Shown one piece after another: positions 10,264 through 11,547 of a stretch of 29,045 bases of DNA. The notes under the pieces were generated by a model that worked only from the letters and a program-made list of their open reading frames with translations, ran no database searches and had not been told where the DNA came from. This stretch comes from a virus (Duplodnaviria > Heunggongvirae > Uroviricota > Caudoviricetes). The stretch lies in the IMG/VR virus record IMGVR_UViG_2579778652_000007, positions 1 through 29,045 of that record, one strand, 5' to 3'. The number at the start of each line of letters is the position of its first letter. The first letter of the stretch is position 1. The translations under genes and the position numbers were made by a program.

Positions 10264-10419
10264 GTGTCATCCAAGGCTAATTATGAATCGCTGGCATCGA
10301 TCATGCCGCGTAATGAACAGGAAGCAGATGCTGTAGTGGACCCGGTAATCGCTGAAATGAATGCTCGCCTGGAGGCTGAATTTGCAGCTGAGAATGAACA
10401 TACCACCCAGGGCGACTAG
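10264..10419 (+). CDS. Small hypothetical protein (start uncertain: GTG 10222, GTG 10264 or ATG 10303)
   Basis: ORF-track ORF 10222-10419; RBS GGGAG 7 nt before GTG 10264; acidic, no motif. Confidence 0.3.
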   Translation: MSSKANYESLASIMPRNEQEADAVVDPVIAEMNARLEAEFAAENEHTTQGD

Positions 10420-11023
10420 GACTGTTTTTTGTGTCGGTAGCGGTCCGTCACTCACTCGTGAGGACTGTGCTGCTATAGAAAAAACTGGCTGTTCAATCAT
10501 CGCGGTTAACAATTCCTGGCAGATGTTCGATGACATTTATGCCTTATACGCCGGTGATTTGTCATGGTGGAAGCAATACGGATCCACCATACCGGGAGGG
10601 AGATTCCGCAAAGTGACAGCCAACCTGGCGGCGGCGAAATCATTTTCGTTGGAGTACAGGCGATATTGTGGACCGGCTGAAGGGGTTAATAGCGGCGCGC
10701 AGGCTATCAGTCTGGCGGCTGAATCAGGGGCTGAAGTAGTTGTATTAGTCGGCTATGACTGTTCTCTGCAAAACGGCCTTCATTGGCATGGAGCACACCC
10801 TCAAGCCCTACGGAATCCAACGCAGGTGTCTATTTCAAAATGGCAACAGCAGTTCCTGGATACCCGCAAAAAACACGCAGATTTACATATTTTGAATGCA
10901 AGTAGGAGCAGTGCAATTCAATGTTTCCCAAGAATAAATTTAGAGGCAGTGATCGCGTTATTATCGTCGGCAGTGGCCCAAGCGCCGCAAACTTTGTTGC
11001 GCCGCGCGGAGTGCCGATTATAG
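10394..11023 (+). CDS. Sialyltransferase-fold (GT42/DUF115-like) glycosyltransferase-like protein, paralog A
   Basis: VFCVGSGPSL, IIAVNNSW, SGAQAISLAAESGAEVVVLVGYDCS resemble GNGPSL and sialyl-motif of CstII/Maf-type enzymes; start could be ATG 10361; 3' end overlaps paralog B by 103 nt. Confidence 0.6.
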   Translation: MNIPPRATRTVFCVGSGPSLTREDCAAIEKTGCSIIAVNNSWQMFDDIYALYAGDLSWWKQYGSTIPGGRFRKVTANLAAAKSFSLEYRRYCGPAEGVNSGAQAISLAAESGAEVVVLVGYDCSLQNGLHWHGAHPQALRNPTQVSISKWQQQFLDTRKKHADLHILNASRSSAIQCFPRINLEAVIALLSSAVAQAPQTLLRRAECRL

Positions 11024-11547
11024 CGGTCAATGGGGCCATCGACTGGCTGAACCGCGCTTCTTATTTTTTCACACTTGATCCATCGCCAGACAATATGCGG
11101 CGCGTTGGTCGTGGCCGCCGTCGCCGTGGTGTTTGTTATTGCATGGCACTACCCGATGTTAAAGAACGTGAAGTCAGAGACGGCGTTCTGTGCTTCCGTC
11201 GTGTGGCTGAACGTGGCATGGAGCCAAAAAATACGAATTCTCCCGAGTGGTGGGCGTGGCGCTGGTCCGCACATTTCGGACTTTGCGAAGATGAGAATGA
11301 AATTGCCAGCGGCAATAGTGCATATGGCGCTCTGAACCTGGCTTTCCATATCGGATTCAAACATGTCGCCCTGGTGGGCGTTGACGCTACACAAGAACCA
11401 CGCGTTCACTCCGGCGGCACGCCAAAAAATCTAAGTCACCTGCCTTTGTTATTCCAGTCTGCGCGTGAACGGATTGACGTTGTTTCATGCGGGAAAATGG
11501 GAGGTATTCCGCAGATGACTCTTAAAGAATGGCTGAAGAATACATGA
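10921..11547 (+). CDS. Sialyltransferase-fold (GT42/DUF115-like) glycosyltransferase-like protein, paralog B
   Basis: 208 aa; RBS AGGAG 12 nt upstream; [54 protein letters not shown]; same motif order as paralog A. Confidence 0.7.

Follow-up and report, generated by a model that had tools for sequence, protein, structure and literature searches.

The overlapping genes pmgO and pmgP of a P1-like phage-plasmid: a conserved embedded start and a variable stop of the upstream gene

The overlapping pair at the locus

The stretch of DNA analysed here (the window, all 29,045 nucleotides of the IMG/VR virus record IMGVR_UViG_2579778652_000007) is a P1-like phage-plasmid, and the subject of this report is a pair of overlapping genes in it, pmgO and pmgP of bacteriophage P1, known as hdmB and hdmC in P7. 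Both are on the + strand according to the list of open reading frames and to the sequence as read directly, the first running from 10361 or 10394 to 11023 (frame 2) and the second from 10921 to 11547 (frame 1), so that they share 103 nucleotides (nt), 10921–11023. The region is 97.7–99.3% identical to P1, P7, RCS47, SJ46, and other P1-like phage-plasmids, and of 5426 complete E. coli genomes 637 contain it, nearly always on a plasmid. The overlap itself is already known, having stood in the public GenBank annotation of P1 since 2004: in the P1 reference (AF234172), pmgO occupies 79592..80254 and pmgP 80152..80778, and the reference record of P7 annotates the 103-nt overlap just as that of P1 does. 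Compared with pmgO/pmgP of P1 and hdmB/hdmC of P7, the window has the same relative coordinates, overlap, and operon at 97.7–97.9% DNA identity; it differs at a few point positions, and the reference start of pmgO lies 33 nt further upstream (the equivalent of 10361). The P1 record describes an operon pmgN-pmgO-pmgP-ppp-pmgQ under C1 operator control. The features on which the argument rests are the following.

10394–11023, + strand: pmgO (P7 hdmB), encoding a small DUF115/MptE-like (Maf-like) protein; start ambiguous among ATG 10361 (P1 record), TTG 10382, and ATG 10394
10921–11547, + strand: pmgP (P7 hdmC), distantly paralogous to pmgO and of the same fold, read in frame -1 with respect to it
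10904–10908, + strand: AGGAG, the Shine-Dalgarno sequence of pmgP, read directly and made of the codon (AGG) for the invariant Arg171 of PmgO and the codon after it
10921–10969, + strand: doubly constrained core of the overlap, encoding the C-terminal helix of PmgO and, in the other frame, the disordered N-terminal leader of PmgP and the start of its strand beta-1; supported by the conserved ATG position and by the shortest overlaps in relatives (40 and 49 nt)
10970–11023, + strand: tail of some 18 codons in which pmgO reads through over a conserved region of pmgP, beyond the PHROG and hhalign homology

For pmgP, ATG 10921 is the earliest start codon of the reading frame, ahead of the VGSGPS motif, and it is therefore the only candidate start. 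The initial annotation had pointed to the AGGAG as a ribosome-binding site inside the 3' end of pmgO, and direct reading agrees. For pmgO, neither homologues nor Shine-Dalgarno motifs single out one of the three starts, and no clear Shine-Dalgarno sequence precedes any of them. The upstream gene pmgN (10222–10419) overlaps the start of pmgO by 26–59 nt, depending on which of these is used.

Conservation of the embedded start and constraint along the overlap

Diverged loci were gathered via protein homologues and contig look-ups. Fifteen of them carry a pair of this type, in phages and prophages whose PmgO is 38–68% identical to that of the window, including Pantoea P1-like plasmids, a prophage of Citrobacter rodentium, and the P1-like viral contig L116. 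At all 15, the ATG of pmgP sits at the identical place within the x-Cys-Phe/Tyr-Pro codons of PmgO (xxA TGY TTY CC), and the frame is -1 in every case. A GGAG-type motif is present at -17 to -9 in 13 of these 15 loci vs. 1 of 16 unpaired pmgO-like genes (Fisher p 7e-6, in a test that ignores phylogeny, the embedded-ATG loci being probably one clade). A rare codon, CGG or AGG, for the invariant Arg171 of PmgO supplies this motif together with the AG that follows. The 16 unpaired genes have CGC, CGT, CGA, or AGG-C at the Arg codon, and none has an ATG at the Cys-Phe-Pro site. Taken as comparative evidence, which we regard as good, this pattern suggests that the internal initiation site of pmgP is under selection. 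The initial annotation had judged the overlap to be real rather than an annotation artefact, and had proposed comparing its conservation across related phages; the retention of the start in the 15 loci and of the Shine-Dalgarno motif in 13, with both missing as a pair from the unpaired homologues, bears that judgement out. Outside the embedded-ATG lineage, the junction between the two genes varies, with overlaps of 4–26 nt, a separation of 1.6 kb, and one in-frame fusion.

Variation within P1-like elements was examined in 86 copies that collapse into 57 haplotypes, with 135 substitutions over 1154 nt; they include 80 near-identical P1 copies from the first viral contig scan, which are unsuited to a study of divergence. 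Alignments are full-length and free of gaps in 83 of the 86 copies, two others being shortened and one having a 1-nt deletion in pmgP. In L069, an IMG/VR P1-like contig, a deletion of 1 nt in the T6 run of pmgP (11064–11069) would put that gene out of frame. Outside the overlap, pmgO shows 51 synonymous vs. 11 nonsynonymous changes across the haplotypes, evidence of strong purifying selection. Within the overlap, variation is reduced where both frames are constrained: the first 62 nt (10921–10982) hold no variable site vs. 7.3 expected (P 6e-4), and the last 41 nt hold four vs. 4.8 expected, three of which alter a PmgO residue. The tail varies at the background rate and is probably under no selection in the pmgO frame.

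The limits of homology fall at much the same place. PHROG 4603 and the hhalign alignment of the two families both stop near residue 191 of the 209 of PmgO (nt ~10966), a point that faces the natural C-terminus of PmgP in the hhalign alignment, and unpaired PmgO homologues terminate a few residues past an "LExxI/L" motif. The suggestion in the initial annotation that the homologous region of the first gene continues to its stop therefore does not hold, and the final ~18 codons of that gene form a tail specific to its lineage. Along this tail, AlphaFold confidence declines from 97 to 69, and the DNA that encodes it also encodes the invariant beta1-Gly loop of PmgP. The leader of PmgP (residues 1–10) is in turn predicted to be disordered (pLDDT 57). 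In paired relatives, the stop of pmgO lies 40, 49, 67, 70, 94, 100, 109, or 157 nt into pmgP. The stop at 49 nt is a TAG within the pmgP codons ATC-GTA-GCC (Ile-Val-Ala); P1 has GTC-GGC (Val-Gly) and no TAG, and its pmgO therefore reads through to 11023. Over the whole of pmgP, the pmgO frame contains 6 stops, and with stops so few, an open run of 34 codons has a chance of ~0.37 by itself.

Only the first ~45 bases of the overlap are thus constrained in both frames, and the two frames alternate in carrying the constraint, a structured protein in one lying over a disordered or dispensable protein in the other. Long out-of-phase overlaps in phages are known to arise by overprinting, for example in the overlapping genes of phiX174 and in lambda Rz/Rz1. 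Like those, the pmgO/pmgP overlap has a downstream start inside an upstream gene, and a constrained stretch in one frame is paired with a poorly constrained stretch in the other. Unlike them, it is terminal and partial rather than fully embedded, its products are paralogous, and no new domain is encoded in it. We also considered an RNA structure that would mask the ribosome-binding site of pmgP and couple the two genes by unfolding. This was rejected, as the RNA around the pmgP start, when folded, showed no excess of structure over shuffled sequences (z +1.1).

Paralogy, fold, and the pmgO-pmgP-pmgQ module

The initial annotation had read the two genes as a tandem duplication from a shared motif order. 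Pairwise alignment by BLASTP is weak (E 0.004 over 36 residues, covering the N-terminal motif only), and a profile-profile comparison was therefore used. Hhalign of the two family alignments recovers homology over the full length (probability 97%, E 7.7e-11, 23% identity, 164 columns), aligning PmgO 7–191 with PmgP 9–208, and each protein matches the PHROG family of the other. A search of PDB chain sequences with both family profiles returned nothing meaningful, and we therefore turned to a fold search. The AlphaFold models are confident (pLDDT 88.9 for PmgO and 93.5 for PmgP), and both have the same top PDB neighbours, namely Maf glycosyltransferase, MptE kinase, and Cst-I sialyltransferase. 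PmgO and PmgP are ancient, distant paralogs of the DUF115/MptE-like (Maf/sialyltransferase-like) fold. Duplication thus stands as their origin; that it was recent does not, as the two are only ~23% identical and the pair predates the split of P1-like plasmids and lambdoid prophages. The shared motif order (VGSGPS, IIAVN, NSG..A, LVG-x-D) is likewise present, with the "SG-x-SA" element exact in PmgP and loose in PmgO (SGAQA).

With regard to the family, both models have the fold of solved DUF115/MptE-like members (Maf 5mu5, MptE 8sd5). The characteristic xGxGPS and NSG...(L/V)xGxD residues are found in the pair (VGSGPS, NSGAQA, and LVGYD in PmgO; LVGVD in PmgP), and are invariant or nearly so in both family alignments. 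In addition, the PmgO motifs NSG, GYDCS, HWHG-H, and R171 are invariant down to 34% identity. The MptE-like profile PF01973 matches 39 of 40 PmgO-family members (best 3e-8) and all 33 PmgP-family members (best 9e-7) at E<1. Each of the three structural neighbours differs from the pair in other respects. The Maf flagellin glycosyltransferases (such as Magnetospirillum Maf, PDB 5mu5) are proteins of ~600 residues with additional N- and C-terminal domains, encoded in flagellar glycosylation loci, whereas PmgO and PmgP, at 208–209 residues and 15–18% identity to them, are the bare domain in a phage operon. Neither flagellin genes nor genes for CMP-pseudaminic or CMP-legionaminic acid are linked to the pair, which in P1-like elements is surrounded by a VRR-NUC nuclease gene, pmgN, ppp, and pmgQ and in prophages stands near genes for lysis or the terminase. 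MptE (PDB 8sd5) is an archaeal 6-hydroxymethyl-7,8-dihydropterin pyrophosphokinase of PF01973, and differs in that PmgO and PmgP score below the threshold of that profile and stand in a phage operon with no folate or pterin context. As to Campylobacter Cst-I, an alpha-2,3-sialyltransferase of GT42 (PDB 2p56), PmgO and PmgP have no sequence match to any PDB chain, those of Cst-I and Cst-II included, and the name "alpha-2,3-sialyltransferase" is a carried-over annotation that is not supported. PADLOC defence models gave no meaningful match.

Downstream of the pair lie two further genes of the operon.

11529–12221, + strand: ppp, a lambda-type Ser/Thr phosphatase (Pfam Metallophos E 1e-15; phrog_246 NinI-like)
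12218–12919, + strand: pmgQ, a GT8-like glycosyltransferase (phrog_1962 "glycosyltransferase", E 1e-127)

The start of ppp is ambiguous, being ATG 11529 in the P1 record (a 19-nt overlap with pmgP) and ATG 11544 in PGAP annotation (ATGA, a 4-nt overlap), in the same frame. PmgQ has no Pfam match; its family profile matches Skp1 alpha-galactosyltransferase 6mw5 (E 1.8e-5) and glycogenin (E 4e-3), and it has an LDLD (DxD-type) motif. In the synteny comparison (loci L003, L088, L107–L125, and L128), each of the 21 loci with a PmgP homologue has a PmgQ homologue on its downstream side, and all 20 that take in the region upstream have a PmgO homologue there. Only P1-like elements have ppp inserted after pmgP and before pmgQ; in lambdoid-type prophages, the lysis cassette lies on one side of the three genes and the terminase genes on the other. 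PmgO-like genes in bacterial genomes, at 34–43% identity, have neither PmgP nor PmgQ partners. The genes pmgO, pmgP, and pmgQ thus form a conserved three-gene module, whose role we consider to be probably glycosylation. The module is not required for plaquing under laboratory conditions.

One relative, P0252 (L128 2501–3631, 376 residues), is a natural in-frame PmgO-PmgP fusion located behind the lysis cassette of a 62-kb phage contig; it is known from this single contig and may be a sequencing error. The family also contains tandem two-domain proteins (P0266, P0257, and P0350). Both the fusion and the tandem proteins fit two domains that work together. At its N-terminal Gly-rich region, PmgP (10921–11544) resembles the WaaZ Kdo III transferase (TIGR04437) at E 0.11, and the PmgP-like half of P0252 does so at E 2.9e-4, both far below threshold. 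This resemblance may hint at kinship with transferases that use a CMP-ulosonic acid, and we treat it as a lead only.

Further upstream, pmgM (9619–10197) encodes a VRR-NUC/PDDEXK nuclease (phrog_5702 "Holliday junction resolvase", E 5e-27, with Pfam VRR_NUC slightly below threshold), and a pmgM-like nuclease gene is often found upstream of the pmgO-pmgP-pmgQ genes in the diverged loci as well. P1-like phages carry a few tRNA genes, and in the window ARAGORN finds one for tRNA-Met (CAT) at 1427–1502 on the + strand.

The functions of these genes in P1 have been approached through gene inactivation. A genome-wide CRISPR interference screen found pmgO and pmgP both to be non-essential (PMC10695390), and a table in the same paper cites their single-gene deletions as non-essential. 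The main text of Gonzales et al. 2022 does not name pmgO or pmgP, and their deletion status is taken from that table, which cites this work. A deletion study reported 24 of 29 knockouts to be without a plaquing defect, the genes named as essential being only pmgA, pmgB, pmgC, pmgG, as well as pmgR (PMC9024508). For pmgN, the table lists the gene as essential by CRISPR interference and non-essential by deletion (PMC10695390), and the former may be a polar effect. In the P1 and P7 records, the designations "putative morphogenetic" and "head morphogenesis" derive from gene position, and neither the deletion nor the CRISPR interference results support them.

Interpretation of the overlap

We consider it likely that pmgO and pmgP are two real, separately translated genes, and that pmgP starts from a Shine-Dalgarno sequence and an ATG that both lie within the final conserved pmgO motif, the tail of pmgO being incidental read-through. 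Under this interpretation, ribosomes would initiate pmgP internally, within the codons from Arg171 to Cys-Phe-Pro, so that the constrained C-terminal helix of PmgO would be encoded together with the poorly constrained, disordered leader of PmgP. Past this core, pmgO would read on in the stop-poor frame of pmgP until a chance stop, hence an overlap of 103 nt in P1 and of 40–157 nt in relatives. The overlap would also keep the two genes on one mRNA of the C1-controlled operon, and may help PmgO and PmgP to be co-produced. We infer that the two proteins act jointly, probably as a heteromer, with GT8-like PmgQ as part of an accessory glycosylation module. A more specific proposal, which we put forward only tentatively and think improbable in its full form, is that an obligate heteromer of Maf-like PmgO and PmgP together with PmgQ would constitute a widespread glycosylation module of temperate phages, modifying a host or phage protein or the lipopolysaccharide core (the P1 receptor), possibly with a CMP-ulosonic acid such as Kdo, and that the embedded start would couple the synthesis of the subunits.

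Several observations weigh against this interpretation. The distance from AGGAG to the ATG is 12 nt, at the long end of the workable range, and the comparison of paired and unpaired loci has the phylogenetic limit given above. No phenotype is known for pmgO or pmgP, and the papers searched hold no proteomic or ribosome-profiling data for either product. RefSeq often omits or truncates pmgO in P1-like plasmids, and some E. coli plasmids carry a frameshifted pmgO (P0002, 48 members), which ends at a TAG (10903–10905) inside the Shine-Dalgarno region of pmgP. With respect to the fold, PF01973 scores PmgO at 23.1 and PmgP at 21.0 bits, below its gathering threshold of 34.6, and the fold is common to pyrophosphokinases (MptE, thiamine pyrophosphokinase), for which reason glycosyltransferase chemistry is putative.

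Among other explanations, a programmed -1 frameshift within the overlap would yield a PmgO-PmgP fusion, besides or instead of a separate PmgP. The -1 phase of pmgP is what such a mechanism calls for, and the pmgO frame contains a heptamer of the canonical X_XXY_YYZ form.

10936–10942, + strand: A_AAT_TTA, a formal -1 slippery site in the pmgO frame, read directly from the sequence and judged incidental

Five relatives (L108, L109, L110, and L115/L124) have A_AAA_AAT at the same site, and the natural fusion P0252 suggests that a fused protein is viable. The heptamer is, however, absent from 10 of the 15 embedded-ATG loci (L003/L088, L107, L112–L114, L116, L118–L120, and L125), including L116, the closest diverged relative. 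That the run is rich in A follows from the Lys-Lys/Asn codons in the leader of PmgP, and we estimate that a heptamer would occur by chance in ~13% of 34-codon stretches. Folding of 10940–11010 revealed no stimulatory downstream structure (z +0.66 vs. shuffles), and pmgP has a conserved Shine-Dalgarno sequence and ATG of its own. Because the heptamer is not conserved and no structure follows it, we reject programmed frameshifting, which we regard as very unlikely.

Decay of the upstream copy, raised in the initial annotation, would make pmgO non-functional and the overlap a leftover. Frameshifted alleles of pmgO do occur, as P0002 and as single cases (P0012–P0016 and P0026), and the first of these recurs at a homopolymer, where it may be a real variant or a sequencing error.

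10868–10873, + strand: A6 run in pmgO, the site of a recurrent frameshift allele; P0002 (174 residues, 48 member sequences) reads ...RKK-TRRFTYFECK and then stops

In one viral contig (L112, 1493–2040), the pmgO-like gene is split over two frames and the overlapping pmgP-like gene is intact. That pmgO is non-essential and is left unannotated in the closest RefSeq relative would also suit decay. Several of the frameshifted "alleles", however, carry compensating shifts, as is typical of long-read errors, and pmgO is intact in the 83 gap-free P1-like copies and not disrupted in the other three. The confident model of PmgO and its motifs, invariant across distant homologues, likewise speak against decay, and the excess of synonymous over nonsynonymous changes leads us to reject it, as slightly less probable still than programmed frameshifting.

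Finally, tandem and fused two-domain relatives (P0252, P0266, P0257, and P0350) might suggest that a single two-domain gene appears as two in the window through a frameshift introduced in sequencing or assembly, an outcome that the initial annotation had proposed to look for in related genomes. This is excluded by an identical junction in independent records (P1, P7, RCS47, SJ46, and E. coli plasmids by the hundred), and it is also contradicted by gap-free alignments in nearly all P1-like copies, a proper Shine-Dalgarno sequence, ATG, and N-terminal leader in the overlap instead of a continuous linker, and diverged relatives that retain two genes with differing overlap lengths.

The interpretation of pmgO and pmgP as two genes joined by an embedded start bears on how they are annotated. 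In the closest relative (L127, NZ_CP074369, 99.9% identical), PGAP leaves pmgO (10361–11023) unannotated, and in another plasmid (L126), the PGAP model of pmgO is a truncation of 166 residues that begins at MFDD and lacks the conserved GSGPS and IIAVN motifs. Gene callers clip pmgP homologues (for example in L107 and L110) to a 4-nt overlap, with loss of the conserved Gly-rich motif; the full-length homology of PmgP marks the upstream ATG as the true start.

We consider this a sound but ordinary finding, one that leaves the current understanding of phage biology unchanged. To an overlap that was already on record, it adds a conserved embedded start, a tail that is probably dispensable, the pmgO-pmgP-pmgQ module, and the frequency of automatic misannotation. 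The locus is a clean textbook case of constraint divided between overlapping frames. For P1-like plasmids, the conserved embedded start tells correct gene models of pmgO and pmgP from wrong ones. As for naming, both "putative morphogenetic" and "alpha-2,3-sialyltransferase" are unsupported, and the genes would be better seen as part of what is probably a glycosylation-like module in the best-known transducing phage.

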